Positions 12,041-63,578 of a stretch of 64,000 nucleotides of DNA are shown here, one piece after another (positions within the stretch are counted from its first letter, which is position 1; the number at the start of each line of letters is the position of its first letter). Source of the DNA: Methanotrichaceae archaeon (lineage in GTDB: Archaea > Halobacteriota > Methanosarcinia > Methanotrichales > Methanotrichaceae); NCBI GenBank assembly GCA_963754945.1, contig CAVWIG010000039.1, positions 1 to 64,000 of the forward strand. Direction: 5' to 3'. The notes beneath the pieces were generated by a model. The model had not been told where the DNA came from. It saw only the letters and a list, made by a program, of their open reading frames with translations, and did no database searches. The translations under genes were made by a program, and so were the position numbers.

Positions 12041-12349
12041 CCTTCAGTACCTCTGGATTACTGATTTGGATTTATTATGGCGAGATCGTTAGCTAGAACA
12101 GTGCATCTTATAGAAGCTGTTAGTGGCAATACCTAAAAAATACTGAGCTTTGAGGGAAGCTGCCTAAAATACGGTCACCAATCAAAGCTCTTCAAGCGTC
12201 TCGATGCCGACCTTCTTGACAATGGGCTTCCAGATCTTTGCAGGCATTCTCGCCAACCTCTAACGGTCAGGATCGGCCGTGATTGGACCTCCCCGGCCTT
12301 CCAGCACTATCTATATACCTTCAGATTCCGATTCACAGTTGGTGATCCA

Positions 12350-13063
12350 TTGAGACGAATACGCTTGGTAATAACGCTGCTATGTTGTGTGACTCTCTGT
12401 TTCGGTGTTACAGCTGTAAATACGCCGGTTAAAATAGGGATAAACGAGGTACAATCCGGTTTAGTGGGTGTCAATGCACCTATCGCAAATAATGCCCCGG
12501 CTGCAAATCCGCCAGCAAAAGCCGCAGTCGCTCCGTCACAAGTCCCGCAGGAAAACGTTATTGTATTGGAACAAGATAGCGGGACGAACCTGACAAAAAT
12601 GAATATCACGTTTACAATTTCACCCACTTACGGTTCGGCACAGGCAGTAAGGTTCACTCCGCCAAAGTCCGGCTGGAATCTGGAAAATATCTTAGTAATG
12701 GCCACCGATAACTGGAATGCGACCAGCAAAGAGCAGCCTAAACCGTTGCCTTTTACAATCGAGATCCGCGATGCTAACCTTACGCTGCTTTACCATTATG
12801 AAGGGATTCAGTTGCCATACTTCACCAATAGCAACGGGGTAAGAATGGCGGCTATAGATGTGCCTCTCATGTCCATGAAGGGAGACTTCTTCGTTTGTTT
12901 CTATGGCTATGGGTCCATTTCACTCGCAGCCGAACTACAGAATGCTACGGGAAACTCCTATTACTACGATGAACGGGCAGCTCAGCTATATCGCGGTGTG
13001 GTGCCATTGAGAAACAATCAGACTACTACTGTGAACTGGCTCATAAGAGTCGCAGGACAATAA
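12350..13063 (+). CDS. Secreted hypothetical protein
   Basis: Signal peptide, Ala/Pro linker, beta-rich domain (AQAVRFTPP...NWLIRVAG). Confidence 0.75.
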   Translation: MRRIRLVITLLCCVTLCFGVTAVNTPVKIGINEVQSGLVGVNAPIANNAPAANPPAKAAVAPSQVPQENVIVLEQDSGTNLTKMNITFTISPTYGSAQAVRFTPPKSGWNLENILVMATDNWNATSKEQPKPLPFTIEIRDANLTLLYHYEGIQLPYFTNSNGVRMAAIDVPLMSMKGDFFVCFYGYGSISLAAELQNATGNSYYYDERAAQLYRGVVPLRNNQTTTVNWLIRVAGQ

Positions 13064-13387
13064 GCACCCTTGGAACATAAAAGATGTAGCCGTCACTAAG
13101 GCCGAAAACGCTATTGGTTGAAGCTCAAATTGCAGACCTAAGTAGTATGAGGTCGCAGCTTGGGCTTCCAAGTTTACACCGGCTGGGGTTTTCCCCAGGA
13201 CCGTCCTGAGAAAGGCATGGATTTCTCCGAGTTGTTCGATGCGGGATAGTTGCCGCACACTATCCACGATATCCCAGCTCTTGTCCTTAGCGATGGCGTA
13301 TCGTGTGCGTAGGTCCATCTTCGAGCATATTACGCAAAAAAGATTTGAGTATACTAAAATTCAGTGCAAAAAGTAAACTCGATAAGG

Positions 13388-13840
13388 TTATAGTTTCTGA
13401 CTCTTAACTCCACCAAGCGAGACAGTTGCGCCACTCCTAACTCCGCCAAGGTTGACAATTGCACCACTGGTGACTTTGGCAGCATTATAAATCCCACAGG
13501 AGGATATCAAATTACACTGAAATTCCCATAGCGGCAGCGAAGTGTTAGCACCATTATTAACTGTGCCAACAGGATAAACGCTAGCTCCATATCCGCCAAC
13601 AGAATAAGCTTTAGCACCATTATTGGTTGTGCCAACAGGATAAACGTTAGCACCATATTCACCAACAGGATAAACGCTAGCACCATTATTGATTATTCCA
13701 AGTGGAGCTGCCCCAATGTTTCCTTTAATTCCAATCCCGCTAGACGACTGCCCGATTGCATACGAACAACAAATCAATATCATGATCAAAACCATGAATA
13801 TCGTTTTCGCCTGTTTCATGATTTCACTTCCCTCCTTCAA
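13388..13840 (-). CDS. Secreted Gly-rich repeat protein
   Basis: Signal peptide; repeats GA(S/N)VYPVG and A(I/T)V(N/S)LGGV. Confidence 0.7.
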   Translation of the reverse strand: MKEGSEIMKQAKTIFMVLIMILICCSYAIGQSSSGIGIKGNIGAAPLGIINNGASVYPVGEYGANVYPVGTTNNGAKAYSVGGYGASVYPVGTVNNGANTSLPLWEFQCNLISSCGIYNAAKVTSGAIVNLGGVRSGATVSLGGVKSQKL

Positions 13841-13967
13841 GAATTATTCTCTTAGATTCACTGACAATATAAAAGAGTTCTGGCGAGATCGATGCCAAAT
13901 CCCTGATAAGTCTATGAAGCCAGAGGCACAATCCATTTGGTGGCCATTGTTTTCCTACTGGCTGTTC

Positions 13968-14168
13968 GCTTCAAAGATTCCGCCGTAGCCCCTCAGCGCC
14001 TCCATCATGCTCTTGGCCACAGGCTTCTTTTGGCCTCTCCTCTTTCACATCTAAGATGAAAGGAGAGGTTGCGCAGGTGAAATCAGGGCCTCTATCCTTT
14101 CCTTGTAGCCGTCATTATATTCTCTGAGGTCTAAGTCCTTCGTCATCTTGTCCGCAATCATGGTCATT
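13968..14168 (-). pseudogene. Relic of a Ku protein C-terminus with an internal micro-inversion
   Basis: DKMTKDLDLREYNDGYKERIEALI...KKPVAKSMMEALR..AESLK; SKMKGEVAQVK segment lies on the opposite strand. Confidence 0.65.
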
Positions 14169-14427
14169 TAGAGGATTATGAGTATCCTCCAAAGATCAAT
14201 CTTTGGTCTTAATTTTCATATAAAACCCACATGATTCGGTGACTCATACATGGAGAATGAAAATCGATATCGTGCGTGACATTTTCATGGGAAAATGATA
14301 TCAACAAACGCATTACCTTCGCCTCGCACCCAGATCGCCCTTTAATCCGTCGTTCATCCAGCTCATAATATGAACTTCGATCTACTCCCTTCCGTCTCCT
14401 CCGGCCCAGGTCCTTCAATGCCCTGAT

Positions 14428-14515
14428 GATTCAAGTTCAGCCCTATCCTATTTATTTGTTGGTATTAATATAGCATATGCAATATAAGAAGATTCTGCCA
14501 AGTGCGTAAGTCCTA
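14428..14515 (-). mobile_element. Isolated ~88-bp IS701-family end, same element as 1-790
   Basis: Near-identical to 702-789 (GATTCAAGTTCAGCCCTATCC...GTGCGTAAGTCCTA). Confidence 0.9.
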
Positions 14516-14768
14516 CTACATTGAGTTTTGTTTCTTTCATTGCTGACCCTATTATCTTTGCGCGATCAAAAGAAGGTAACAATCCAGTAGGGTGACCGGC
14601 CAGCCTAAGCATTCTTAGGATTGGGCTTAAGGACCCAAACTATTGCGCTCTTCGGAATACGACTGTGGTTGGACTGTGGATGGTCTCTGTTGGGCTAAGG
14701 TGCAGCTCAGGAATTAACAAGGAATTGGGAAACCCTTATATGTTATCTCTGCATGAGTGGTTTCGCCT

Positions 14769-14836
14769 GGGGCCATAGGGTAGCCTGGTATCCTACGAGA
14801 CTGGGGGTCTTGCTATCGGTGATTTGAACGCCGATA
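14769..14836 (+). pseudogene. Disrupted tRNA-Pro(GGG): intact 5' acceptor strand, D and anticodon arms; T-loop inverted; 3' acceptor strand missing
   Basis: GGGGCCATAGGGTAGCCTGGTATCCTA-CGAGA-CTGGGGG-TCTTG, then CGGTG-ATTTGAA-CGCCG; no TGGCCCC follows; TATA-like CTTATA about 30 bp upstream. Confidence 0.85.
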
Positions 14837-14932
14837 CCGAATTCGCTAAGACCGCCACTTTCCAAAGGCTATGTTTTAACGATTACATATAAAAATCTTG
14901 TTGATAAGAAAACACAATCTTGTAGGGCTCAT

Positions 14933-15766
14933 TCAAGTGTACGATAAGATGTCTTTCACTATTCGCCCAATCGGTGAGGTCGCCGTATAGTCTTCAATCG
15001 GAAAGTTGAGCTTGGGTTTAGCCGCATCTATACCTAGGTATTTGATGGCACCTCTGTCAACAGCTCGAGCTGCTTCCACTTGGTCATCGAAGTTTCCTAG
15101 ATAAATCAAATGATAGTTGACTCTAATCCCAGCAATCCATTTTTTATCCCTACGGCTCCAAGATACATCATAGAACCGACTTGTTTTTTGCTTCATTTTG
15201 CGAAGCAATTTCTCCTCTGGTTTTACTTGTTGTGGAAGTTGGACAGTTGTTGCCGGAACAATGCCCCACGGAAAGTTTAGTCGAGCGAATTCTCCATCGT
15301 ATTCTATCGAAGCACTATCATACGCGAAAGCAGCCTCTATCTCATCGTCGAAATACTCGGAATGAACACACTGCCCGTTGAACCATTTCTGCACTTTCCA
15401 TTTTTGTTTTTCGCAACTCCATGCGACACCCTTGTACTCGCTCGACGATTGAATACCTTTGCGCACGCATTTCTTTTTTGAATTTACGCTCTGTTGCCGA
15501 TCATCCGCGAGTCGTAGGCTCGACCTTCTGTTGTCTAACGTGTCGCCGTTGATGTGGTCAACCTCTTCGCCGGGTAATAGCTGACGACCGAGCTTGCGCT
15601 CTATGATGACCCTGTGCATTTGTATTACCCTATTCTTCTGCCCAACAAAGCGCACAGAGCGCTCTGCATAGCCCTCACCGTAGTACCACTTCCTCTCCGC
15701 TAGTTCGGCATCTTCGTCATCGATTAATGTGGTCTTCCCTTGGGTGAGCGTAACTTCGATTGCCAT
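14933..15766 (-). CDS. HNH endonuclease with two C-terminal AP2 DNA-binding domains (phage-type)
   Basis: MHRVI..EVDHINGDTLDNRRSSLR; AP2-1 YKGVAW..W..FDDEIEAAFAYD..LNFP; AP2-2 VSWSRRDKKWIAGI..YLGNFDDQVEAARAVD..LNFP. Confidence 0.9.
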   Translation of the reverse strand: MAIEVTLTQGKTTLIDDEDAELAERKWYYGEGYAERSVRFVGQKNRVIQMHRVIIERKLGRQLLPGEEVDHINGDTLDNRRSSLRLADDRQQSVNSKKKCVRKGIQSSSEYKGVAWSCEKQKWKVQKWFNGQCVHSEYFDDEIEAAFAYDSASIEYDGEFARLNFPWGIVPATTVQLPQQVKPEEKLLRKMKQKTSRFYDVSWSRRDKKWIAGIRVNYHLIYLGNFDDQVEAARAVDRGAIKYLGIDAAKPKLNFPIEDYTATSPIGRIVKDILSYT

Positions 15767-15819
15767 GTGAGATATCTATATATTACCGATCTATTTTTTA
15801 AAAAGGTTGTGACGGCGTG

Positions 15820-15990
15820 TTACGCACCTTTCGCCATGCCTTCTTGAAAAGCCTGCTGATCTTCGTCTCTTGCCCAAGCCGTGCGCTTCAGGTACTCCAG
15901 TTTTGTTATATGTCCTCTTTGGTACTCCGCGTTCCAGTAGCACCAACAGGCAGCGGCTGCACCATCAGTCAGCTTTTTTCCCTCAACCAT
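15820..15990 (-). CDS. Small hypothetical protein (56 aa) of the putative integrated element
   Basis: ATG overlaps the end of the upstream ORF; co-directional with RHH and HNH genes. Confidence 0.5.
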   Translation of the reverse strand: MVEGKKLTDGAAAACWCYWNAEYQRGHITKLEYLKRTAWARDEDQQAFQEGMAKGA

Positions 15991-16192
15991 CCTTCTTGAT
16001 CTCCGCTGCCTTCTCTGCTGCATCGATCTTCGCTGTTTGTATATCGAACCAGCGCATCACCTCGTTGCAAAGTGCGTCGACGTTCAGCTCTCCCTCTCCG
16101 CCCACAAAGCTTGCGGAGTCGAGAGTAAGCTGGATCGGCTTCCTGCCTTTATAGTACAACTCGTTTTTTGCTATGTCCGACATTATGCTCAT
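15983..16192 (-). CDS. Small hypothetical protein (69 aa) of the putative integrated element
   Basis: Starts about 10 bp after the reconstituted RHH stop codon. Confidence 0.55.
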   Translation of the reverse strand: MSIMSDIAKNELYYKGRKPIQLTLDSASFVGGEGELNVDALCNEVMRWFDIQTAKIDAAEKAAEIKKDG

Positions 16193-16257
16193 GATTGGTA
16201 TCCTATTCTTTTTTCGCTTTGTCTTCTTTCATTAGTTGCGTTAATGCGTATACAATA

Positions 16258-17542
16258 GAGAGTTTCGAAAAACTAATCAATCGAAATACTTATATACTAT
16301 TAATACTATAATATAATGCATGAGGACTCTCATTGATTTTGCCATTCGAGCAGAATATGCTCGAGTAAAAGCCCTCGGAGATGATCTATCCGAGATCGGA
16401 TCGTTGATCAATTGGGAGCGTTTCAGATTTTTGGAACCATTGATATACAAAAATAAAACTAGCCGCGGAGGTCGTCCGAACATTGACATCGTGATTATGG
16501 TGAAAGCTCTCGTAATTCAGCATTGGTTTGGTCTAACAGATCCAGAACTGGAGCGACAGGTTGCGGATAGGATCTCTTTTCGTATTTTCCTTGGCACCAC
16601 TGAAGTAATTCCTGATTTCAGCACAGTTTGGCTATTCCGTGAACGTTTGATTAAGTGCGACGTATACGATGATCTTTGGAATGAGCTTCAAAGGCAGCTC
16701 GATGAGATGGGGTTTACTGTAAAGAATGGCACTATCCAGGATGCAACCTTCATAACTTCGGACCCAGGTCGGAAGAGGAACAAGAAAGACGAGCAAGGCG
16801 GGGACAAAAAGGAAGGTCAAGATTCCGAAGCCACCAGTACGAGCCTGAATCAGGAGTTTGATAAAGAGCTAATTGGTATTTCAAATAATATTATTGATGA
16901 CAAGGCCAAACCACAGAGACTCGAAGAAGAGCCAATAAATGAGGGAAGTTGGGCAAAAAAGGGTGTCAAATCCTTTTTCGGATATAAAGGTCATATCTCA
17001 ATCGATACCAATTACCACCTTATCAGATATTTTGAGACTACAACTGCTTCTGTACACGATAGTCAGGTAGATCTTGGAATTGAAGGGCTACCACGTTACG
17101 CCGATAAGGGATATGATGGTGCAAAAACTCGAGGATATGATGCAGCCATGAAAAAAGCTACAAGAGGTCACAAGCTTGGAATCATAGATCTTCTGAGGAA
17201 TAAGAGAATCAGTAAAACGCGATCGCACATCGAAAGATGCTTCGCTGTTATGAAGCGGGGGCATAAGGGAGCACATGTTTATGTAACAACTGTCGCAAGA
17301 GCTGGAGTAAAATTCATGATGAATTCGGTCGTTTACAACCTGGAACAGTTGAAATATTTAGTGCATAAACAAACAGCCTAGCGGAAGCTCTCTAAAAAAG
17401 CGCAAAAATTAGAAACAACAAGGTAAATTGAAATCTAATAAGCCAATTTAGGGGTGAAATATGCTAAAAAACCACTATAAAGATTGAAAATATTAACGCA
17501 AGAATTTAAGGCTTCATTAACCAACACTAAATCGAAACCCTC
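16258..17542 (+). mobile_element. IS5-family insertion sequence
   Basis: TIRs GAGAGTTTCGA / TCGAAACCCTC; 4-bp TSD AATA (16254-16257, 17543-17546). Confidence 0.92.
16320..17381 (+). CDS. IS5-family transposase
   Basis: GGRP, DRISFRIFLG..PDFST, IQDAT, FGYKGH, YADKGY, IERCFAVMKR. Confidence 0.95.
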   Translation: MRTLIDFAIRAEYARVKALGDDLSEIGSLINWERFRFLEPLIYKNKTSRGGRPNIDIVIMVKALVIQHWFGLTDPELERQVADRISFRIFLGTTEVIPDFSTVWLFRERLIKCDVYDDLWNELQRQLDEMGFTVKNGTIQDATFITSDPGRKRNKKDEQGGDKKEGQDSEATSTSLNQEFDKELIGISNNIIDDKAKPQRLEEEPINEGSWAKKGVKSFFGYKGHISIDTNYHLIRYFETTTASVHDSQVDLGIEGLPRYADKGYDGAKTRGYDAAMKKATRGHKLGIIDLLRNKRISKTRSHIERCFAVMKRGHKGAHVYVTTVARAGVKFMMNSVVYNLEQLKYLVHKQTA

Positions 17543-17695
17543 AATAGCGTGGCTGCGAGTGGCAAATCGATTGTCTGCTATTTCTTTGTCCATCCACGTT
17601 ATCTGGTCATCATCAAGCGTCACCGACACTTGGATTTTCTTTTTCTGGCTCATTATTGCATCTCTTTGCAGCCTATAGCATATAAGCTTTACCTG

Positions 17696-17736
17696 TTACA
17701 TATGTAATTATATGATAACATCATATAGGATGTTAT
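17696..17736. promoter_or_regulatory. Palindromic operator-like sites between the divergent RHH operon and small ORFs
   Basis: TTACATATGTAA (17696-17707) and ATAACATC-N6-GATGTTAT (17715-17736). Confidence 0.45.
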
Positions 17737-17872
17737 GACAATGAAATACCCCGTAGAACACGAAGGCAAGACCACCTTCGTGACAGTTCCAGAAGATGAT
17801 GAGCCAACAACGTGGGCAGGCGGCGGAAATGGTCCTGTTCTTCCCAGAGGACAAGCCGAAAAAAAGGAGTGA
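17735..17872 (+). CDS. Small hypothetical protein (45 aa, MTMKYPVEHEGKTTFVTVPEDD...)
   Basis: Manual translation; divergent from RHH; below the ORF-track cutoff. Confidence 0.45.
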   Translation: MTMKYPVEHEGKTTFVTVPEDDEPTTWAGGGNGPVLPRGQAEKKE

Positions 17873-17877
17873 TTAAC

Positions 17878-18187
17878 ATGGGCAGTCAGAACTTATTCTG
17901 ATGGTATCAGCCGAGATGCACACGTATACGGCGATAACGTATACTTCAGCGACGGTCAGGGCTGCGACACGATCTGGTTCACGACCGTTCCAGAGGCTAG
18001 AAAATTCCTTAAAAGGATCGTCTACAGGTACAGATTCGGAGGTCATGAAAGTGGCTTGTGTGGGTGCTGCCAATGCCATTTTTCCTACTCCGATAAGGAT
18101 AACTGGAACAAAACTAAACAGTATATGTGCGACTGTTGGAAGGAGAACATCAAGAAAGAAGTAGCGTTGGGCATGGCGGTGGTTTGA
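17878..18187 (+). pseudogene. Cys-rich ~100-aa protein with a probable 1-nt frameshift at codon 2
   Basis: RBS AGGAGTGA then ATGGGCAGTC; deleting one G opens MAVRTYSDG...LCGCCQCHF...YMCDCW...MAVV*. Confidence 0.45.
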
Positions 18188-18265
18188 GAATGACAGTAGA
18201 ATATATCAGTCCGGTTGAGACACGCTGGCATAAGCTTTTTTGATATACGATGCAAATAATTCTCT

Positions 18266-18808
18266 ATGACCCACTCAGATGATGCAAGAATTGCATGGGA
18301 CAGGAAGGAAGAGGGCGATGAACTTTTCGAGAAGGGAAATTTCGAAGGAGCCATCGAGTGCTATAGCAAAGCTCTAGGACTGTTTCCACGAGATCCGGAT
18401 CTCTGGAATGTGAAGGGTATGGCTCTAAGTAAGCTAAAGAGGTATGATGAGGCTATCAAGTCTTATGATGTAGCTATCGAGCATTATCCCAAGGAGACAA
18501 TTGTCTGGATCAACAAAGGTGTAGCTCTCAACAATGCGGGCAAGCAAATCGAAGCCATTAGATGTTTCGATATAGTGATAGATATCGATCCTCAAGACGC
18601 GGATGCATGGTGTCAGAAGGGCGTGTCTTTTGGTCTTTTAAAGTGGTTCGAAGAAGCATTAGAGTGTTTCGAGACTTCAATTGACATCAACTCTCACCAC
18701 GCAAGTGCCTGGTACAACAAGGGCATCACTCTCTTGAAGCTTAAACGTGATAACGAGGCTGGTGATGCATTAGAAAGGGCCAGGGAATTGGGCTTCAGCA
18801 AGTGTTAG
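18266..18808 (+). CDS. Tetratricopeptide repeat protein
   Basis: About five TPRs with W.(N/V)KG..L...A..C(Y/F) periodicity. Confidence 0.92.
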   Translation: MTHSDDARIAWDRKEEGDELFEKGNFEGAIECYSKALGLFPRDPDLWNVKGMALSKLKRYDEAIKSYDVAIEHYPKETIVWINKGVALNNAGKQIEAIRCFDIVIDIDPQDADAWCQKGVSFGLLKWFEEALECFETSIDINSHHASAWYNKGITLLKLKRDNEAGDALERARELGFSKC

Positions 18809-18815
18809 CTCGTGA

Positions 18816-19235
18816 GTGAATAGAGATATGGAGTCCAGCACCTTTGATGTAGTACCAAAACGTAAGCGCATCAATGTATTCAAGGTCGGCAAGCTTTGGC
18901 TTTTCAAGCAGTTCTTCGATAACCGTGCATTATTCGATGCGTTGCTGGACCATTACAACAAGGATCTGTACCGGTTCGAGTTCAAATCCACCGGCGCGAG
19001 AAACAACGCCCTCAAGCTCCTGGAACGGAACGACTTCGACTACGATCTGGTGGAGGACCTGAAGGGCTACGTGGTCAAGCTGCCCAAGTTCGCCAAGTAT
19101 GCACAGATCCTGAAGAACTCCGTGGCTTTTAAGGAGACAGCAACCGAGCGGATATTCCTGATGAAGGACCAGGCTGCGGTCGAGGAGGCGGTGGACTTGG
19201 GCGCTAAAATATTTGAAGGCGATGTAGCCTTCTGA
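18816..19235 (+). CDS. Hypothetical protein
   Basis: 139-aa ORF with coding-like codon usage; converges on the regulator gene. Confidence 0.75.
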   Translation: MNRDMESSTFDVVPKRKRINVFKVGKLWLFKQFFDNRALFDALLDHYNKDLYRFEFKSTGARNNALKLLERNDFDYDLVEDLKGYVVKLPKFAKYAQILKNSVAFKETATERIFLMKDQAAVEEAVDLGAKIFEGDVAF

Positions 19236-19237
19236 GG

Positions 19238-19594
19238 TTATGCAGAGCTTAACTCCTTCAGCCTCTGGATGGCCTGCATAGTCCTGGTGGCCTCGCTGTT
19301 TTTCTCCACTTCATAGTGCTGTATGATCTTCTCGATTGGTACTCGGAGCTTGTAGATTTTCATGGGCCGACCTTTTCCCTCGGCTTTAACTTCGCGTTCA
19401 TCGATCCAGTTGTTTTGGCGTAGTGTACGCATTGCTATGCTCACTTCTGGCTGCCTCAGGTTGGTTCCCGTCTCGATCTCCCTGGAGGTTGCCTCGTTCG
19501 TGTTTGCGAGATAAGTTATCAGCCCGGCCACATTTCTTGGTACATTTAGGCTTCTAAGTGCATCGATGAATTCCAGATCCTTTTCGTCCAGCAC
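19238..19594 (-). CDS. Winged-helix transcriptional regulator (ArsR-like, COG4738 type); 5' end possibly degenerate
   Basis: SREIE..LRQPEVSIAMRTL..KGKGRPMKIY. Confidence 0.85.
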   Translation of the reverse strand: MLDEKDLEFIDALRSLNVPRNVAGLITYLANTNEATSREIETGTNLRQPEVSIAMRTLRQNNWIDEREVKAEGKGRPMKIYKLRVPIEKIIQHYEVEKNSEATRTMQAIQRLKELSSA

Positions 19595-19946
19595 CTAACA
19601 GTGGTTTGTCTTATTATAATCTCTCTCTCTTTATAGATATCTTAGTACCATATAAATATTTTCTTTAAAACAGGCTTATCTAAAAGCGAACTTGAGGCTC
19701 GACTTCAATTTGCTCGGTGTAGATCGTGTGACTCCCATATAACCAAAACCGATTTATTCGCCAATTGTCTATGCTGCATTGGGTAAAAGTCGATAATGAA
19801 GCCCCCTCCCACGATTTCCTACTTGGCCGAGTAACCTCAGCAGAATTTCGGGCTAATAGGAAAAAGCTGGCAGATAAGATAGAGCTTGCACACCTCGATC
19901 CAACGAAGAAGGTTTCGATGCCATCGAACTTGAAGGTTTAACAATC

Positions 19947-20251
19947 ATGAGAACTAAGGTATTGATAATGTCGTCTTTGCTTCTGCTTGCTTTCTTTGCT
20001 AATAGATCCATCTCAATAGATTGGAACAATCCAGAATACTACCAATCAGTTGATGATTTGCTTTCAAGCGGCAATGGATATGGTCCCAGTTTAACTCAAC
20101 AAGCCCAAGCTGCAAGGACAGCCGAGATGGGACAGCCTGGGGAGGACATTCTGAGCGTGCCTTTCGGTAATAATTCATCCTCTGGAGCAAGCACTCCCCA
20201 GCAATCCAGAATTCAGGAACAGAACCAAAATATCGCAACTCAGTCAGTTGC
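19947..20251 (+). pseudogene. Secreted protein truncated by IS701 insertion
   Basis: Signal peptide; ORF runs into the IS TIR at 20252. Confidence 0.65.
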
Positions 20252-21661
20252 CTGTACTTTCCAACTTTTTCGTATATTTATAATATCATCAGATTAAATT
20301 AGAATATAAATTTAATAAAAAAAATAAAAAGTAAGGGTTTTATACTAGGATCAAATTCTCTCTTTTGGGAGTAGAATGATCAAAATAATAAAGGTACCAT
20401 TACAATTAGAGCCGTTCTTGAATGAATTTCAGGATCTTTTTACGAAACCGAGTTATGGATCGTTTCGAGATTTGTGTGGAGCGTTAAGCGTGTGTGATAA
20501 ATCCAAGACCGTTTCCAACCTTTGTGATACTATGGCCGAATGTAGGAAAGGAAAAAAAGCACGCTCTTCGTACAATTGGTTCTTTAGCGATGCGAATTGG
20601 GACGAGGATGAAGTTGCTCAACGCAAAGTGGACCTTTTTATTGAGAAATTATGTTTAAAAGAAAATGATAGAATGTTGTTAATAATTGATGACACATACA
20701 ATGAGAAGGAAGGAACTCAAACGGAAGGTGTAGGAAAATTTTATGATCATAGTAAAGAAACCTACATTTGGGGTAACAATTTTGTTACCTCTGTTATCCA
20801 ATCCAAAGGATTATTCATACCACATAAAGCTAAGATGTATATCAAGAATGATGACGAAAATGAGAATTTTAGAACAAAAATGGAGATTGCCTTGGACGAG
20901 ATCATTGAACCATTAGAAGTACCAAAAAGCATGGACCTTTATATCGTTTTCGATAGCTGGTGGTTTTCTTCTGATCTCTTTAACAAGTGTCTCAAATTAG
21001 GGCATAATATAGTCTGCCAAATCAAATCTGATAAGAAAATCAGGATAAATAAGGACATGTGTTTTCAGGTTAGAGACTTAGCAAACCAAATTGAGGATAA
21101 GTATTTTATTAAGACAACTATTAGTGTTCGGGGCAAAAAGAAGACCTACTATGCATTTGAAAAGAAGGTAGTCATAGACAAGGTAGGCGAAGTTAAACTT
21201 GTAGTCTCAAAGAGAAAAAAGGAGAGCACTACAAAATATTTTATAAGCACTAATGAATCGCTTTCGTCGAAAGAAATACTCTCAATTTACGAGGATAGAT
21301 GGGATATCGAGACGGCCCACAGAGAGACAAATCAAAAATTAGGATTCAAAGATTACCAATTAAGAGAAAAACAATCAATTGAAAGATTTATTCAGCTAGT
21401 CTTCTCAGTATGGACTGCGATTCTCTTATGGGAAATAGACAATCCGCCATCTGGGGACGGTTCAAATCCAAGAACTATGGGCGACATGATCGACCTAGTA
21501 AAAATGCAAGCATTAGGTGAAACATTTGAATATGTGCTGATGTATTTTAATATACCCGTACCGGAAGGCGGATTGCTTTATATACTCAGAAGCATGGGAT
21601 TGAAAATATAATTTGATATAATTTAGAAAATATAAATAAAGGAGAAACTTGGAAAGTACAG
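20252..21661 (+). mobile_element. IS701-family insertion sequence
   Basis: TIRs CTGTACTTTCCAA / TTGGAAAGTACAG; no matching TSD. Confidence 0.9.
20376..21611 (+). CDS. IS701-family DDE transposase
   Basis: LIIDDT, VFDSWW, YEDRWDIETAHRETNQKLG. Confidence 0.93.
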   Translation: MIKIIKVPLQLEPFLNEFQDLFTKPSYGSFRDLCGALSVCDKSKTVSNLCDTMAECRKGKKARSSYNWFFSDANWDEDEVAQRKVDLFIEKLCLKENDRMLLIIDDTYNEKEGTQTEGVGKFYDHSKETYIWGNNFVTSVIQSKGLFIPHKAKMYIKNDDENENFRTKMEIALDEIIEPLEVPKSMDLYIVFDSWWFSSDLFNKCLKLGHNIVCQIKSDKKIRINKDMCFQVRDLANQIEDKYFIKTTISVRGKKKTYYAFEKKVVIDKVGEVKLVVSKRKKESTTKYFISTNESLSSKEILSIYEDRWDIETAHRETNQKLGFKDYQLREKQSIERFIQLVFSVWTAILLWEIDNPPSGDGSNPRTMGDMIDLVKMQALGETFEYVLMYFNIPVPEGGLLYILRSMGLKI

Positions 21662-22030
21662 TACTACTATGTAGTGATTGGGCTGGGATACAGTCTTACC
21701 CCTATACTCCCTTTTATGACTGACCCCGGCCATTCCTTCTAATCTTGCTTGGTTCGGTGGGCCAAGCTCAGCTAAGCTCTCTTCCTTCTTGTTGACGAAA
21801 CCGATAGCATTGAAGACATATGCACGAAATCCTCCAAAAGCACGTATATATATATAAACGTGGTTTTGGAGAAAAAGCTGCATATGTCCTTATAGATAGC
21901 GATTTTTCTGGCAGAGCGGCGGTTGGTCAGGACTTTGGGCGCTATGATCAAAGGGGCTGGGTTGCCTGTGATGAGAGGCAGAAAGAGGAAGGCCATAAGT
22001 TCTGGTATAATGCATACTGGAAGACTGAAC

Positions 22031-22310
22031 CCCACATTCCGCACTTTGACTTTCAAAATCGAGTAATTCCATTGCTAACGATTTTTGAATATAACTATAA
22101 TTTTTATTATTTATATCTATCGATATTTAGTGCTGAACATCCTCACATTTTCGGCCAAAGGAATTCTGACAACATATGTCTGATTAAAAAATCAACGGAA
22201 TGCAAAATACTAAAATTGAAAATTCTTAATAAATTTAAATAATTATATCAAACTAACTAAATCGATAGCTGCAAAAATATGAATTGGTGACTCGAAGTGC
22301 GGAATGTGGG
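22031..22310. mobile_element. 280-bp MITE with IS1634-like ends
   Basis: 16-bp TIR CCCACATTCCGCACTT / AAGTGCGGAATGTGGG; 6-bp TSD CTGAAC; AT-rich interior. Confidence 0.85.
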
Positions 22311-22496
22311 CTGAACTAGCGAGAAATAATAATTCTAACGATTTATAGAACCTCTATCCATCTTAGTTAGTGATGAGCTGAGCAACTATTTCGGCAAATA
22401 TAAAGATCCCTCAGTCTTACCGTACCACGTCTTTATATTCGCTCAAATTCAATACATGAATTAACTGAGAGGAAAAAACTCTCATGGAGGGACAAT

Positions 22497-22754
22497 ATGA
22501 GAAATCTAGTCCTATGCGGCTTAATCCTTTTGACATTAGCCTTGAATTGCGAAGCAATGGCTCCAGTACAGCTAGGTGGAAGCAACGGTCAGGCCATTTT
22601 AGACCAAGTATCGAGTCCAGGACAAATCCTTAATCTATCTACAAATACTGGTCTTTTGAATTTGGGGAACATTCCGAGTGGTTATGCGCTAAATCAATCC
22701 GGAATATTGGACCCCCTCGAGACCGCATTATATGATTGGACCCCTGGAATCTGA
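22497..22754 (+). CDS. Small secreted protein (85 aa), paralog of 62547..62804
   Basis: GGAGG RBS; LALNCEA signal, PVQL.GSNGQAIL, GNIP.GY.LN.SG, WTPGI. Confidence 0.85.
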   Translation: MRNLVLCGLILLTLALNCEAMAPVQLGGSNGQAILDQVSSPGQILNLSTNTGLLNLGNIPSGYALNQSGILDPLETALYDWTPGI

Positions 22755-22991
22755 AAATCATTGCTGGAGGAGCAGGCAAAAATCGTGCGTCCATTTCTGC
22801 CCCCCAAAAATCAATTGACTTTTGTCTCCTTCTTTTCATCCGAAAGAAAACCCAAACGAAGGCTCATTAAAGTATTCATAGGTAGAAGCTTCGAAAAATC
22901 GTGAGATGGGGGTCAGGAAAGGCGCTCAACCACAATCAATATACCGTATCCATGAAATATAATGATTAGAGCACTATGGGGGTAAGGAGGG

Positions 22992-23612
22992 TTGGATGTG
23001 ATGACAATTCATCGATTATCTTTTTTGGTGATCTTAGCCTTGACTTGCATATTTATGGAACCGGCTTGGGTCACGGGTCAAGGATGGAGCGGTTATGGCT
23101 ACAATTGGCCGTATTGCTATCCACAAAGTCAGGCAGATTATGAGCAACACATGTGGGACATCCAAACATATTATTTCCTAAACCAGTATGATCCCTATGT
23201 CGGGCCTGCGTATAGTCAACCTCGATATAACACGCCTGCTTATAACATACCCACAAACAGGGCCGTACCCACATACACGGCCGCATATAGTTCGCCTTCT
23301 TCATACAATACGCCTGCCTATAACCAAAGTGTAGTCAATGGCAACGCTACTTACTGGCTCAACGAAGCAAATGTGTCCTACCTTACCGGTTCCTACGAAC
23401 AAGCCGCTGAATCATACGCCAAAGCAGTCAACGCTGATCCATCTTTGTCAGAGGGCTGGCTCAACCTGGGTAACTCCCTATACTATCTGGGTAGATATCA
23501 GGCGTCACTGAATGCCTATAGTGCTTTGCTTAAGCTTGACCCACAGAATGTAGATGCTTTAGCTGACAAGAGCCAGGCACTCTTGGCCCTAAACAAAACT
23601 GGCGGATCCTGA
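22992..23612 (+). CDS. Secreted TPR protein with Tyr/Pro-rich N-region, paralog of 10979..11536
   Basis: Near-identical TPR block; YNTPAYN repeats. Confidence 0.85.
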   Translation: MDVMTIHRLSFLVILALTCIFMEPAWVTGQGWSGYGYNWPYCYPQSQADYEQHMWDIQTYYFLNQYDPYVGPAYSQPRYNTPAYNIPTNRAVPTYTAAYSSPSSYNTPAYNQSVVNGNATYWLNEANVSYLTGSYEQAAESYAKAVNADPSLSEGWLNLGNSLYYLGRYQASLNAYSALLKLDPQNVDALADKSQALLALNKTGGS

Positions 23613-23933
23613 GATTACCGCCAGCCTAGGCTCAAGTGGTCTAGCCCCTCGTTTCCACGGAAATTGATCCTGTCCAAGCCTCCAGTGTTCTCTGGCTCTT
23701 CTGCGCTTTTGGATAAGCTTTCGAAATAAGCTTCGTCGTAGCTCTGAAGCTCCACATTAAAGAGAATACCCAGTCTGCAATCTCTAGTCCGGTCCAGCCA
23801 GGTAATGAGCTGAGCAACTATCTCGGCAATATGAAGATCCTCTGTCTGCATACCACGTCTTTATATTCGCTCAAATTCATGCATGAAATTAAGTGATAGG
23901 ATTAAACTCTCATGAGGGAAAATATGAGGAATC

Positions 23934-25119
23934 TAGTGCACCATAACATTAATTTTGCAAATTAATATAATGCCTGTTTAGCTTTAATCTTGCATCATTC
24001 TTCGTGAATTTCCATCTTACAGTAGTTTTTTTTGCGTTACGTTCTTGTGCCCACACCGAAGCCTCTTTGGTTAAAGTATCGATGTCTCCAATCCGACGAT
24101 CGAGGCATTGCTTCGATAGGGCTGAGAGTTCTATCTCAGCCATGTTGAGCCAGCTACCTTTCTTTGGCGTATAATAATATTCGAACTCCTTAGCCAGCTC
24201 AAACGCCTCTTCAGGCGCAAAAGCATTATAAAATGAGCCTGAAGTATGCGTATTGAGATTATCCTGGACCAATCGAATGGATTCTACACCTGGATATTGC
24301 TGGGTAAGTTCTTTCATGAAATGGGCGTAGTCCACCCTTGTCCTGTGCTCCATGACACGAATCATTCTTTTTCCTGCATGAAGATCAAAAGCAATAAGGA
24401 TGCAACATGTCCCGTTACGGACGTATTCATAATGCACCTTCTTCGGACTGCCTGGTTTCATGGGTATAGGCACTAAGACATCGCCTATCAGTTGGCATGG
24501 CCTCTCGTCGAAACAAACCACAGGATGCCTCGGATCATATGGTTGCTCGTACAGAGTTAATACATTTTCCATGTTCCAGATATATTCGCTCGTCATGCTC
24601 CCTATGCACCATCGCTGTTTGAGCCATGGCTTTATTTCATTTTTTTTAACGCTCTGCAAACGCTCATTCCTGAGATCGAGTCCACTTCCCCCAGCTCAAC
24701 AAGCTTGTCGGCCAATAGATTCAGCGTCCATCTCGATCTGCCTTCAGGCGGATCTGAGCAAGCAATGCCGGTCAGTTTAGCCTCAACTCGTGCATCTATC
24801 TTCGGAGGCGCTCCACTGCGAGATCTTTCATTCAATGCAGATTCCAGGCCACCCTCGAAATATCTCTTTCTTATCCTCACTATTGTCGTTCTGCTCGCCT
24901 TCAATGCATCAATGATCTCCGCATCGGATTGCCCTCCATCGGCCAGGAGCAGTATTCTTGCGCGAGTTAAACTCCTTGCAGACGACTTCCCACGACGGAT
25001 GTACTGGTTCAACTCTTCTCGTTCTTTCTCTTCCAGTTTCACACAGAATTTTGTTTTTCTTGCCACGATCTATATTCTAGACCTTTTATAAGATTTAAAA
25101 CTTGCGTTATGGTGCACTA
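23934..25119 (-). mobile_element. IS630-family insertion sequence
   Basis: Ends TAGTGCACCATAAC / GTTATGGTGCACTA with flanking TA. Confidence 0.92.
23949..25066 (-). CDS. IS630 transposase in two frames (orfA 24632-25066 HTH; orfB 23949-24659 DDE), probable programmed -1 frameshift
   Basis: RARILLLA, GAPPKI, CFDE, LVQDNLNTH, SWLNMAEIE; A8 run at the frame junction (~24640-24647). Confidence 0.9.
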
Positions 25120-25683
25120 GATTTTGTGGATAAAAATGTTAAAATTATTGATACTCTGAAACACGAGAAATTCAATATTTATATACAATTGATAAAATTA
25201 TCCTTTAAGAATTTCTACGATATATTGGATAAAATTGGGTTTTTTATAAATGATTACTTAAAATTAAACATTCCCGACAAAAATGTTGATTTTAGAAAAG
25301 TATGGTATTCAAATGTTAAAAAGAAAACGATAAATAATAAAATTCTAAATACCCATAATTATAGTCTTAATGCTCTATTCGATTTACATAAAGAACTCGA
25401 AGATGGCATTTACGTAGAACTAAGAACGATCAGGAATGCACTAACTCATAGGTTTATTAGTATTAGGTCGTTCAAAAACAAGGGTGATATTGAGTCTTTG
25501 ACCGAAGAACAACTTTTTAATCGGACTTTAGAACTCGCAGAATTAACTAGAAACGCAATTATTTATCTATTAAGTTTCGTGGATGCAGAAGAAAATAAGA
25601 AGGAAAAGAATTCAGCAAAGAAATTACTGCTATTGCCTGCGTTTGAAGTCCCAGATCATTTAAAGAGATTCGGAGGATTCTAA
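25120..25683 (+). pseudogene. C-terminal HEPN domain (LA2681-like), N-terminus removed at the IS630 boundary
   Basis: FYDILDKIGFFINDY, LNALFDL, RNALTH (R-X4-H); very AT-rich. Confidence 0.75.
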
Positions 25684-25840
25684 TAGACCAATTATTGGTG
25701 GCGCTACTTACTGGAATTAGAAAAGCGACTTCTAGGAGTACTTGATCAAAGCACAGCGAAAAGATACAACGCAGAATTCTTCAGCCTCGTTCAGCAAATT
25801 AATATAAATTGAACCAGAAGTATAGCAGGAAGTTGGTACT

Positions 25841-26086
25841 ATGCCAGAGCTTGAGGACAAGATCAAAGAGCTGCCTCCGGATCTCCGCCAGGAGGTAGAG
25901 GATTTCGTTCAATTTTTGATAGAGAATCAGAGAATCGCATCAGAATGCCAAGACGCCCCTTGAAGTTGGACTGGAGAAGCGCGCTAGAAGACATGAAAGA
26001 CGAATACACATCCGTTGAGCTGCAGCATAAGATCTCCGAATGTAGGACCGAGGAGGATGTATCTTCTTGATACCAATATCCTTTAG
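25841..26086 (+). pseudogene. Decayed DUF2281 antitoxin (frameshifted) plus 9-codon VapC/PIN stub
   Basis: KELPPDLRQEVEDFVQFL / LDWRSALEDMKDEYTSVELQHK; overlapping MYLLDTNIL* at 26057-26086. Confidence 0.7.
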
Positions 26087-26464
26087 TGCTTCGATTGCCG
26101 ATAATTTGCATATAACCAAAACTACGTCCTTGCCCTCTGACGTTCTCTCCACATGCATCCAGTCATTCGCCGTCCAAAACTTCGCAGAATTGATAGATAT
26201 ACTCTCGCCTGGCCACGCTTGGATAGGCCCAGCCAAGCTCGACAGCAGCTTCAGATCCGATGATCTTCTCTTTTAAACCAAAAGCTCGGTAACGGGCTGC
26301 ATCGATGTATGTAGTTAAGCGTATCTAAAGAAGAGTTTATTTCTGGAACTTGACCAACGTCCGGTGAGAAAGACACACCGGCACTACACTATTGCCGCGT
26401 TCGCCAAATTGATATAATTGGAACCGGGTATATAGACCGAGTTGGTATTACGTCAGAGACGCAT

Positions 26465-58156: not shown

Positions 58157-58228
58157 AGCCAAGGTCCGGAGTCGAACCGGATTGGTATTGCTCTGCAGGC
58201 AATTGCGTGGCCGTTCCGCCACCTTGGC
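58157..58228 (-). tRNA. tRNA-Cys(GCA)
   Basis: GCCAAGG acceptor, ATTGC-CTGCAGA-GCAAT anticodon arm, TCCGG-TTCGACT-CCGGA T arm, U73. Confidence 0.95.
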
Positions 58229-60249: not shown

Positions 60250-60513
60250 GTGTCCATGAATATATCCATCCCACTTTTTTCCATCCCGCTATTGGCCTCG
60301 GCTGTTCTAATTTTACTAGGCTTCCTGGTGACGCCCTTCTTGGTTAGGTTAGGCGTGATCGGCATCGGTGCAGGAAGCGTAATCCTCGGATTAGTGGCCA
60401 TAAAAGACTTTCCCAATGGCTTAGAGCTCCAAACTATTGTGCTTTTCGGAATAACGACTGTGGTTGGGTTGTGGATGATCTCTGTAGGGCTGAAAGAGCA
60501 GCACAGGAATTAG
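60250..60513 (+). CDS. Small three-TM membrane protein
   Basis: Three hydrophobic segments. Confidence 0.6.
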   Translation: MSMNISIPLFSIPLLASAVLILLGFLVTPFLVRLGVIGIGAGSVILGLVAIKDFPNGLELQTIVLFGITTVVGLWMISVGLKEQHRN

Positions 60514-60823
60514 CAGGGAATTCAGCAAGTGCTATTAATCACGTAAGTTAGATCAGTTGCCTAGGATTTTGGTGTCTTCTGTCTCTATAAGGTTCGCGAA
60601 CCTTACATCTCTGGTCCCGTTCTCTTTCTACAGGTCCCGCAGTATTTGTGCTCTCTTCTGCACTTTAGCCAATCTTTAGCGGCATTTAGTAATTGTGGAT
60701 CATAGTTTTCTCTGCAAAAATTATACGTGAAAAAAGGATAACTAAATATTCAATACTAAAGTGTAGCTACTGGATTTCATGTTTATGAGCATTCAGCCAT
60801 TGCATCATTAAGGATAGGGGTTC

Positions 60824-61162
60824 TTAACCTTGAGAATTGCAAGGGCATCCACCACTCGAATTATCTGCTTTAGATGACTTTGGCGCGTCTGAAGTTGCGC
60901 TATTCGGGTCCAATAGCATGGTTGAGGCTGTAGTCGAATCGGTCATTTCTTTGGTTTCGTTCATGAGCCGGCTTAGGTTTACGTTTATGGATACGTTTCT
61001 TACATCGGCTTTATTAGTTGGGATGGTTAAGCTTGCATTGGTTATGTTCAAACGGTTGGTTGCATTGACTTTTGCAATTGCTTCTTTCTCTCCAACGACT
61101 ATACCAAACCAAATAGTCGCAAAGAGTAAGATTAACATTCCAAATTTTATGAACTTATCCAT
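60824..61162 (-). CDS. Secreted sequon-rich protein with C-terminal GGCPCN
   Basis: GGTG RBS, signal peptide, NAT/NIT/NAS/NVS/NLS/NET. Confidence 0.7.
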
Positions 61163-61449
61163 TTCAACACCAGTAATTCGATTAACGATTTATAAGAATT
61201 TAGCTTTTTCCTTTTCCTAAAGAAAGGACATGGGTTAATCAGGCAGAATATGAAGGACGATTCCAAACGGAACTGTTTCGCCGATCTTCCTTCCAATGTA
61301 TTCTGGTGATTTTGGTGATCCAAGATCTTGGACCCCGCACTGCACTTCCTAAGACAAATAAAGAAAAGAGGCAGGTTTCAGCCTCTTCAAGAGCCCTATT
61401 TCTTATGCCAAAAAAAGCATTGGGATAGGTTCTAAAGTTTCAGTATATT

Positions 61450-61950
61450 CTAAGACATCGTTGTATTCAGAGGTTGAGTTGTATTAACTGGATTGGTCGC
61501 GTTCTGAGGTTTAGTCCCATTAAAAGGTGCAGTTACGACCTCTGGCTCAGCTCTATTCAGGGGTTTGGTTATAACCAATGGTATAGTCCGATTTAATGGA
61601 TTATTCACCACAGTGGGAGTATTTAGTTCTTGAGGTATGATTGAGACTGATGGCTTGGTTTGATCTAGCTGTATGGTTGTTCTTTCAGCGTTCAAACTAC
61701 CAAGTGCAGTTGGGGTAGGGAGCTGTCCGCTGAAAAGCCCTTTTCCTTGATTAGTCCCCTCAGATGGCAACACTCCCGAGAATAGGGCGATTGGTTGCCC
61801 TACAGAAGGTATCACACCTGAAAATGAACCTATGGGCTGCACTACGGGCGTTGTTCCTGTTGCCATGATTCCTGGCATAGAGAACAGCATGGCAACTGCG
61901 ATTAGTAGTATGCATTCAAGAATAGATGGTATCTTTATCAATCCACTCAC
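61450..61950 (-). CDS. Secreted Pro/Thr/Asn-rich repeat protein
   Basis: Signal peptide; FSG..P x3; PLN.T repeats. Confidence 0.7.
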   Translation of the reverse strand: MSGLIKIPSILECILLIAVAMLFSMPGIMATGTTPVVQPIGSFSGVIPSVGQPIALFSGVLPSEGTNQGKGLFSGQLPTPTALGSLNAERTTIQLDQTKPSVSIIPQELNTPTVVNNPLNRTIPLVITKPLNRAEPEVVTAPFNGTKPQNATNPVNTTQPLNTTMS

Positions 61951-62546
61951 CTCTTCGTGCCATTATTTCTCAGGATATTAATCTTTCTCTAGGCGGTGCG
62001 GGATCCGTCACCAGAAGTCACAGAAGATCTAAAAATCTAAAAAAAACGCCCTGCGGAGGTGCTAATTGTCGTTACAGGTCTACCTGTGAGCTCTGCCAAC
62101 ACCCATGGGTCTTGGTACATGTTGCTTAAGCGGTACCATTGGTGATTATAGAGATAAAACCAATTCCTATCGGGGGTCCTTGATGAAACGTTCATTGATT
62201 CTAATTGCGATCCTGACATTATGTTCCATTGTCCAGTCAGATTCGCTAGATTTTCAGAATTTTGGAGACGATTTTGGCAACTATCTTCCCATTATTTCCG
62301 GCTATCTTGTATGAATTTGGATTACCGCACCGTTGAAGGATCAATTGTGGAATTATTCGGTTCCCTGGTATTGTTCAGGAACACAACGCATGGGGCCCTT
62401 TCCTGTCAGAGCAATTTGCATTTTTGTGGGTCAAATTTGTGAGTCAAATCTCAATACAGGTCATAGGCGTTTAGTGATGCCTGATATCAACCTAAGAATG
62501 GACTCACTACTTTTGCCTGACTACCCGTTGAGCTTAGTAGTGATTT

Positions 62547-62804
62547 TCAGATACCAGGGGTCCAATTCCCATAATCATTTGATAAATCGGTCAATAATCC
62601 TGATTTATTTAGCGAATATCCCATCGGAATGTTACCCCAATTCCAAAGGCCAGTATTTGTTGATGTGTTATTGGTTTGTATCGACCCTGCTATTTGGCTC
62701 AAAATGGCTTGGCCGTTGCTTCCACTTAGCTGAACTGGCGTAGTTGCTTCGCAATTCAAGGCTAGTGCCATAAGGATTAAGAAGCATATTACAAGATTTC
62801 TCAT
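62547..62804 (-). CDS. Small secreted protein (85 aa), paralog of 22497..22754
   Basis: MRNLV..LALNCEA..PVQL.GSNGQAIL..WTPGI; conserved upstream leader. Confidence 0.85.
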   Translation of the reverse strand: MRNLVICFLILMALALNCEATTPVQLSGSNGQAILSQIAGSIQTNNTSTNTGLWNWGNIPMGYSLNKSGLLTDLSNDYGNWTPGI

Positions 62805-63052
62805 ATCTTGTCCCACATGAGAGTTTTAATCCTCTCAGTTAATTTCATGGATAGAATTTGAACGAATATAAAGATGTGGTGCGGCATAGCTGAGGGATAT
62901 GCTGCACAAAGGATGATCAATTATACCATTTAGAACATATCAAGGTAATTTTAATTGTTAAAAACATTTAAATAACATCGGATACATTAGATTGTTGTTC
63001 AGGTTATTTGATATCCAAAAAGAAGTGATATGACATCTGCCACGGAGAAGAA

Positions 63053-63208
63053 ATGGAGGAATCTAAAATGGAAGGCATGAAAAATTTGTGGGAGCATCTC
63101 AGCGAAGATAAGAAGAAAGCGTTGATGAAAGCGAAATTGGATATGAAGATGAAGAAGGTGCAAGCCAAGCTGGATTTCCTGAAGGAATTGCAGAAACTCT
63201 TAGGGTAA
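63053..63208 (+). CDS. Small Lys/Met-rich helical protein (51 aa)
   Basis: Manual translation MEESKMEGMKNLWEHLSEDKKKALMKAKLDMKMKKVQAKLDFLKELQKLLG*; GGAG upstream. Confidence 0.55.
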   Translation: MEESKMEGMKNLWEHLSEDKKKALMKAKLDMKMKKVQAKLDFLKELQKLLG

Positions 63209-63260
63209 GGATGGAATCAAGAAGCTTCGAGCATAGAGATGTTTCGAAACTTTTTATTAC

Positions 63261-63578
63261 ATCGGGAGCGCGGAGGGTCACGTATACCCCGACCTTCAGG
63301 TCGGGGATGAAGTGAACCCTCGCCCCTTTTGGGGGTGGAAATCTATTATGTTCAAATGGCAAATTCCTTCGATCCGTTGGAAATGTGACTGCTGACGCAA
63401 TCAGCACAACAATAAGGATTCTCAGGGGAAACCGAAGCAAAGTATCAATCGTGCAGACCAAGGAGATCAGGGCAACGAAGACTCGACGATTTCTGGATTC
63501 CATAAAACCGGGCGTGAGGGCGTGCGGCCCGAAGCATACCCCATCCTTTAGGGTGGGGTGGCCGCACGCAGTTTGATT
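63261..63578 (+). mobile_element. IS200-family internal-deletion derivative (hairpin ends plus tnpA C-terminal relic)
   Basis: Nested hairpins CCCCGACC-TTCA-GGTCGGGG and ACCCCATCC-TTTA-GGGTGGGGT; interior reads GKFLRSVGNVTADAI. Confidence 0.75.

Follow-up and report, generated by a model that had tools for sequence, protein, structure and literature searches.

The sequence at 14769-14836 is probably the junction that a defective, provirus-like integrative element forms at its attachment site, and not a tRNA gene rearranged in place. The element looks like a member of a family whose tyrosine integrase crosses over within the anticodon loop of tRNA-Pro(GGG) and in which the segment that would restore the tRNA has decayed; the site resembles an attP-like arrangement or the joint of tandem elements. 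From left to right it comprises the integrase side, a captured host flank, a promoter, tRNA positions 1-43, a hairpin and the other arm of the element (Table 1). The window (the whole stretch of 64,000 nucleotides analysed) is contig C39 of an archaeal assembly, G000 (2.97 Mb in 54 contigs, 87.7% complete), and the host of the broken gene is a Methanothrix-like archaeon.

Table 1. Features of the window, with one comparison element from contig C21 of the same assembly
Feature	Position	Strand	Basis or remark
Repeat- and IS-rich island	12247-26200		between two syntenic blocks; dispersed repeats, dozens of copies in G001/G002
Dispersed-repeat copy truncating integrase remnant	14428-14516	.	many scattered matches in G001/G002
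Probable tyrosine integrase remnant, first 13 codons (MKETKLNVVGLTH)	14503-14541	-	weak evidence
Integrase-proximal arm (P-arm) motif	14555-14585	+	25/30 bases identical to G005:C62 provirus arm
15-nt direct repeat	left 14578-14592, right 14913-14927	+	13/15 identical; exact 15-mer in L047
R1, diverged second copy of host upstream flank	14624-14726	+	about 86% identical to R2
Promoter TTATATG and leader	14727-14768 (box 14736-14742)	+	sequence homology
tRNA-Pro(GGG) positions 1-43	14769-14812	+	93-98% identity to relatives' intact genes
C plus 8-7-8 hairpin TATCGGTG-ATTTGAA-CGCCGATA	14813-14836	+	T-arm look-alike, loop reversed
Inverted look-alike of anticodon loop and 3' stem, AGTGGCGGTCTTAG (native ACTGGGGGTCTTG)	14846-14859	-	pairs with 14803-14812 around hairpin
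Element left arm (P' arm) ending in TATAAAAA	14857-14895	+	homologous to G001 attL flank
HNH_3 + AP2 endonuclease gene (phage-type HNH)	14933-15766	-	Pfam; phrog_99, E 5.5e-45
IS5-like transposase	16320-17381		within island
ISC1217-like transposase	20376-21611		within island
IS630-like transposase, frameshifted	23949-25066		within island
HEPN_LA2681 gene	25102-25683		within island
R2, native upstream flank of tRNA-Pro(GGG)	60418-60522	+	alignment with G001, G002, window 60340-60760
Canonical gene-restoring element, same integrase family	C21:18320-33266		14.8 kb at tRNA-Leu(TAG); 57-bp direct repeat
Integrase of the C21 element	C21:32229-33080
HNH/AP2 homologue of the C21 element	C21:23217-23711

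A tRNA-Pro(GGG) gene that stops at position 43

The tRNA part reads GGGGCCA TA GGGT AGCCTGGTA TCCT A CGAGA CTGGGGG TCTTG and comprises the acceptor 5' strand, the D arm and the anticodon arm, with anticodon GGG. A first-pass annotation had described these parts behind a TATA-like promoter, and direct reading of 14736-14812 agrees with it. In eight relatives the end of the intact gene is ...TCTTG TGAC CGGCG TTCAAAT CGCCG TGGCCCC A, and after position 43 these genes and environmental contigs read TGACCGGCG. In the window, TGAC of the native gene is replaced by CTAT in the four bases preceding the stem, and TGGCCCC by ATACCGA in the seven bases after the hairpin. The native DNA therefore stops at position 43 (14812, junction 43/44), not in the T loop.

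Neither ARAGORN nor Rfam, even at E <= 10, called a tRNA at 14769-14836, and of the complete cloverleaf only positions 1-43 are present, with no 3' acceptor strand. That strand had already been reported as absent. By eye, neither TGGCCCC nor a G-U-tolerant equivalent occurs in 14813-15000, and a T-arm-like motif followed by TGGCCCC is found nowhere in the 2.97-Mb assembly. An intron or a permuted tRNA was considered and rejected; the only plus-strand TGGCCCC in the window lies at 39177, inside coding-like sequence.

The promoter and the tRNA part form a module with a repeated left boundary at 14726/14727. Homology to the orthologous metagenome contig L047 and to record 4 of sequencing run X1 begins at 14726, and R2 changes to other DNA at the corresponding point. 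Uncompensated changes have accumulated in the tRNA part: A28G in G000 (A in all relatives), A7G in the related genome G002, and G36A in L047, which turns the anticodon into GGA. From its sequence, the tRNA fragment looks unconstrained.

A T-arm-like hairpin with a reversed loop

Position 43 is followed by a single C (14813) and then by TATCGGTG (14814-14821), ATTTGAA (14822-14828) and CGCCGATA (14829-14836). The two arms form eight pairs, one of them T.G, and the loop is an exactly reversed T loop, as the first-pass annotation had noted. The reverse complement of the hairpin equals the T arm of the relatives at 16/17 bases, and the hairpin is spaced from the anticodon stem as a native T arm would be. 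A search with the T-arm 17-mer, allowing up to two mismatches, gave one match in the 64-kb window (minus strand, 14817-14833, one mismatch) and matches in 0/100 shuffles. The T stem of the relatives aligns as CGGCG/CGCCG, so it is not unrelated to the hairpin arms. From the 16/17 identity and the position we infer that the hairpin may derive from a T arm. The 4 and 7 bases flanking it are wholly unlike the native ones, which would be odd for simple decay and counts against such descent.

Beyond the hairpin lie, in order, CCGAATTCG, then CTAAGACCGCCACT (14846-14859), and then an A+T-rich stretch ending in TATAAAAA (14888-14895). The whole of 14803-14860 folds as a nested hairpin (-24.1 kcal/mol, z -4.16; 0/200 shuffles as stable), in which outer 11-nt inverted repeats, GGGGGTCTTGC and GCTAAGACCGCC, enclose the 33 nt of 14813-14845. 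Inverting either the ATTTGAA loop or this 33-nt segment yields no tRNA.

Several other readings of the hairpin and its surroundings were discarded. As a minus-strand tRNA or 3' half it would lack an acceptor or D arm, and its stem would acquire a C.A mismatch. An inverted, degenerate copy of the promoter and 5' tRNA in 14834-14908 is marginal, with 118/3000, 174/3000 or 27/3000 shuffles reaching its score depending on the scoring. A scan of viral contigs for the hairpin pattern gave 0 matches, and matches in L044 (a Marinimicrobium scaffold from a genome collection) and L050 (a metagenome) have unrelated flanks and were taken as chance palindromes.

The junction in other records

The same junction was seen in seven records, always in one orientation: G000, G002/L045, the metagenome contigs L046, L047, L048 and L049, and X1 record 7. 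The G002 junction is 98% identical over 86 nt. A 167-nt Logan contig from X1 shows 0 differences over 14783-14949, and the hairpin is identical in G002 and L046-L049. The junction, which recurs in G002, L046-L049 and the X1 contig, is not a misassembly, an objection that had been raised at the outset. Contigs L046, L048 and L049 are near-identical to G002, and all may represent one population. Evidence on orientation and junction from the four runs X1-X4 rests on contigs; in the low-depth contigs of X2-X4, 14832-14950 is uncovered, which says nothing firm about absence.

Between G000 and L047 the arm is identical at 107/107 positions (14813-14919), compared with 36/40 for the promoter and leader, 42/44 for the tRNA part and 749/821 for the HNH ORF. 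The G002 arm is identical at 81/82 positions (14813-14894). Such conservation of the arm reflects constraint or recent homogenisation. The G002-type records carry the junction without the HNH gene and have an IS after 14894.

Four combinations of flanks were found. The host flank is joined to the flipped arm in G002, L046, L048 and L049, which is an attL arrangement, the G002-type flank being the native chromosomal one. The integrase side is joined to the flipped arm in G000 and L047, and to an intact 3' part in X2 record 9, a 1286-nt contig that joins 14516-14812 (7 differences) to it. Finally, the host flank adjoins an intact gene in the relatives. These would be the combinations that recombination through a shared core predicts. 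The unitigs of X1 and X2 are not phaseable, and we infer the attR reading of the contigs from these two runs.

Flanking DNA: arms, a probable integrase remnant and repeats

The upstream flank occurs twice in the window, as R1 beside the fragment and as R2 at the native locus. The order at the native locus is SAM synthetase, tRNA-Cys and others, then flank R2. No promoter or tRNA gene follows R2; from 60523 the DNA resembles the inserted element of G001, a genome of the same genus. The ORFs past R2 (60837-63503) have no Pfam or PHROG match. The tRNA-Cys(GCA) at 58157-58228 was called by ARAGORN and by an Rfam-based genome search (51.3 bits), but not by the window-wide Rfam scan at the gathering threshold.

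The first-pass annotation had proposed looking for a nearby tyrosine integrase. The window contains no integrase ORF, by tblastn of the contig or by Pfam, and what can be seen is a 13-codon stretch that is a probable, weakly evidenced remnant, together with the arm motif. L047 encodes MRGSRLNV (8 codons only) at the same place, and the attR-adjacent integrases of the family begin MRGTRIKIDW (G005) and MRSMFKINW (G001). At the repeat copy (14428-14516), which truncates the remnant, every run shows a high summed depth of contigs, some of which diverge at 14515/14516. The arm motif matches the stretch of G005:C62 between integrase start and attR with a score of 30, reached by 0/1500 random genomic segments.

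On the other side of the hairpin, 14857-14895 matches the left-junction flank of G001. The two segments point the same way with respect to the tRNA 5' part and lie at similar distances from it; 0/500 shuffles, 3/3000 random genomic 120-mers and 2/492 GC-matched segments reached the local score of 28. Since the orientation is shared, the element was not inserted backwards. Both arm homologies are short, 30-39 nt, and the contig surroundings of 14769-14836 are strongly rearranged, with many repeats; these points count against reading the site as an element junction, as do the lack of an integrase ORF in the window, of a partner site in G000 or G002 and of viral genes to the right of the HNH gene, and the negative scans of viral contigs. 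A direct-repeat or arm likeness to the attR arms of G001 and G019 was rejected as not significant, 33-1104 of 1500 controls reaching the scores.

The 15-nt direct repeat brackets the block formed by R1, promoter, tRNA fragment, hairpin and arm. Among 9 loose matches in the genome, only these two copies have common flanks. A related motif, ACAATCC, recurs in the integrase-proximal arms of G005 elements.

The HNH/AP2 gene is intact and 91% identical in L047, with homologues in 8/105 genomes of the family. To its right lie transposases and chromosomal genes, without viral genes by Pfam or PHROGs. The original description of virus-like genes following the fragment thus holds for one endonuclease gene and fails for the transposases after it. 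An internally deleted HNH/AP2 copy is present at C34:27660-27860 of G000, where the N-terminal 17 codons run straight into the final ~50 codons (69% identity with the window protein).

Integrase elements at tRNA genes in the family

Integration into tRNA genes is well known, and cases in G001, G005 and G019 bear out the suggestion that tRNA-Pro(GGG) is targeted by tyrosine integrases in this family. In G001 the 5' part of the gene stops after ACTGGGG on contig C199. Its 3' part starts with ACTGGGG on contig C19; ~140 nt away is an ORF, truncated where the contig ends, that corresponds to the N-terminus of the G005 integrase. In G005 a phage-like insert of 18 kb encodes a primase-helicase and a P2 GpU-like protein and has two Phage_integrase genes. 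The insert is flanked by a 31-bp repeat that corresponds to tRNA positions 29-60 and ends exactly at the T loop 3' end; neither copy is an intact gene. Partial tRNA 3' copies also adjoin integrase starts in G019 and on G005:C84, and the integrase lies ~100-140 nt from attR in G001, G005 and G019.

Left junctions in these elements fall at position 37 (G001), 43 (G000/G002) and 60 (G005), and right junctions at positions 10, 26, 29 and 31. What all att variants seen have in common is a single segment of the anticodon loop, ACTGGGG (positions 31-37). Across the related elements the boundary between tRNA and foreign DNA lies at or 3' of the crossover stem-loop, as in an att junction. The integrases of the relatives have the Pfam Phage_integrase domain and an N-terminal SAM-like domain, and they lie beside the att site and do not span it. 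At the site itself G000 has only the probable 13-codon remnant and the arm motif, compared with full integrases in G005 and a partial one in G001. Elsewhere in G000, integrases of the same family adjoin 57- and 64-nt tRNA-Leu 3' copies that rebuild the gene, the 14.8-kb C21 element being canonical in this respect. No relative was found in an integrase-based scan of viral contigs, and no free element in the viral-contig scans. We found no paper that links Methanothrix, provirus, integrase and tRNA.

The relevant passages of PMC8371274 describe a Campbell-model anticodon stem-loop class of att sites, among the tRNA att sublocation classes of Williams 2002 as summarised there. The elements considered here resemble that class in their tRNA target, in the shared 7-nt anticodon loop region (the classical overlap region of tRNA att sites, according to the same passages), in the partial tRNA copies that flank them and in the ~100-140 nt between integrase gene and attR in G001, G005 and G019. 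Those passages also state, for all events, that integration reconstitutes an intact tRNA gene. In contrast to this rule, the element-borne match goes no further than position 37 in G001, 43 in G000/G002 and 60 in G005:C62, and the junctions are not intact genes.

A further comparison is offered by the pTN3-like integrases, which use the 5' half of a tRNA gene as attB (Cossu et al. 2017, cited in PMC8371274). The integrase-side module likewise includes the promoter and the 5' half. In run X2 this side continues into an intact 3' part, and expression of the gene would start from element-side DNA. The pTN3 integrases belong to the SSV 'suicidal' type, in which attP lies within the int ORF, and in this the site at 14769-14836 differs: six-frame translation of 14560-14960 revealed no ORF running across the tRNA part.

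The missing 3' part and the supply of tRNA-Pro(GGG)

The first-pass annotation had called for an assembly-wide search for the reciprocal junction and for an intact tRNA-Pro(GGG), and neither was found. No second copy of 14769-14812 exists in the 87.7% complete G000 assembly, and neither G000 nor G002 showed a partner site bearing the tRNA 3' part; in the latter the native downstream gene is present without any such part. The proline tRNAs of G000 (40 Rfam hits, 37 ARAGORN calls in all) are limited to Pro(TGG) and Pro(CGG). In G000, G001, G002 and G005 (completeness 88, 99, 93 and 99%) the search for an intact tRNA-Pro(GGG) yielded junction fragments only. Because 52% of the proline codons in 488 long ORFs of G000 are CCC or CCT, an unassembled intact copy in that genome is a real possibility. 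Contigs with the native continuation past 14812 are present in all four runs X1-X4, and intact alleles occur in environmental contigs.

Alternative explanations

That a tRNA gene here meets mobile DNA and is left broken rather than restored was foreseen by the first-pass annotation, and on this point it was right. Its mechanism seems quite improbable: an integrase would have crossed over within the T loop of 7 nt while the element, or part of it, was wrongly oriented, and the hairpin would be the recombinase core. The 8-7-8 geometry does resemble a tyrosine-recombinase core, the palindromic T stem would let an inverted copy offer the same arms, and the G005 repeat ends at the T loop 3' end. 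Against these points, CTAT in place of TGAC puts the end of native DNA 4 nt before the T stem, the flanks on both sides of the hairpin are foreign, and ACTGGGG in the anticodon loop is all that the att variants share. Proper recombination between inverted sites would, moreover, preserve the orientation of the overlap. Backward integration is contradicted by the arm at 14857-14895, which is oriented as in G001, whose integrase and attR are canonical. The further idea that tRNA integrity is toggled by a reversible DNA switch is close to refuted. Inverted repeats of 8 bp, with others of 11 bp outside them, do flank short invertible stretches, but all seven records show one orientation, neither inverted form has a 3' acceptor strand, and the window has no invertase or integrase ORF, nor is there a recombinase gene adjoining the site. 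Strand-changing joints were not seen in the run contigs, a weak point as only contigs were used. A site-specific inversion switch, for which both orientations and an adjacent recombinase would be expected, was rejected with the same caution about contigs. A parallel is provided by plastid non-coding DNA, where small hairpin loops undergo 'flip-flop' inversions that are polymorphic in orientation among close relatives. As there, the stems are intact inverted repeats and the loop between them is an exact reverse complement; unlike there, all 7 records share one orientation and the DNA outside the stem is non-native too.

Two other accounts give the hairpin a different origin or a role. An HNH/AP2 homing-type endonuclease could have cut the tRNA gene, after which misrepair, by fold-back or by a template switch in the palindromic T arm, reversed the hairpin and lost the 3' part while the endonuclease gene stayed beside its former target; we consider this unlikely. 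The hairpin does have an HNH_3+AP2 gene ~100 nt away that is intact in both G000 and L047, homologues of this gene are as sporadic as expected of selfish endonuclease genes, 14803-14860 is a nested palindrome, and the reverse complement of 14834-14908 is weakly collinear with promoter and 5' tRNA (27-174 of 3000 shuffles reach the score). However, G002-type records have the junction and lack the gene, the other HNH/AP2 copies of G000 (C21, C34) are not beside hairpin-bearing tRNA fragments, fold-back would keep the loop native relative to the 5' part, and the arm homology to the G001 provirus is left unaccounted for. Alternatively, the site might encode a working RNA, either a split-tRNA 5' half joined in trans or a promoter-driven RNA of tRNA half plus hairpin that the element uses. 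The promoter is intact, 14813-14894 is conserved above the adjacent coding gene, a T-run at 14876-14879 could terminate a ~110-nt transcript, and the fold of 14803-14860 is unusually stable. This account is nevertheless very improbable: the 3' half is absent from G000 and G002, no bulge-helix-bulge partner can be defined, the L047 anticodon is GGA, and there is no Rfam match at E <= 10. An archaeal split tRNA in particular was rejected, as the G001 3' part is preceded by an ACTGGGG repeat and not by an anticodon complement.

A probable defective element and its possible consequences

The attachment-site reading brings together the observed junction position, arm homologies, fixed orientation and missing 3' half, and a possible order of events follows. 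The host flank R1 may have been captured when an aberrant excision carried attL along. Lambda gal/bio specialised transduction is an aberrant excision of this kind, in which host DNA is carried with the phage. The likeness, suggested by the arrangement, is that host DNA (R1, promoter and 5' tRNA) lies between element arms; unlike the lambda case, no free element was found. The 8-7-8 hairpin would be the start of the element's other arm and a remnant of a tRNA-like, gene-rebuilding segment that has lost its variable region and acceptor strand and whose T loop has become reversed. The reversal may have come about by stem-arm recombination, by inversion of the 33 nt between the 11-nt repeats, or by copying of the T arm from the other strand. 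With neither variable region nor acceptor strand in the rebuilding segment, integration or recombination with this arm would leave a dead tRNA 5' half behind a live promoter.

In the family the rebuilding segment is seen in four extents, which would be stages of its decay: full, reaching to the T loop, reaching to the anticodon stem with a reversed T-arm hairpin, and reaching to the anticodon loop only. A broader and doubtful proposition is that Methanothrix-type proviruses let the tRNA-rebuilding part of att decay, that lysogeny knocks out tRNA-Pro(GGG), and that the 82-107-nt arm is a functional module. If it were true, tRNA-Pro(GGG), the reader of about half of proline codons, would be lost on lysogeny, and these archaea would decode CCC and CCU without a GGG tRNA. 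The arm with its nested palindrome would then be a recombination or regulatory site, or the source of an abundant RNA of tRNA half and hairpin made from the orphaned tRNA promoter.

A 'flipped' tRNA piece can be part of an element arm, then, and need not record an inversion. Several related elements at one tRNA gene fail to rebuild it, in contrast to the stated rule. If the loss of the gene is real and not an assembly gap, it would bear on proline decoding in archaea and on how much att-site decay is tolerated by a still-mobile element.
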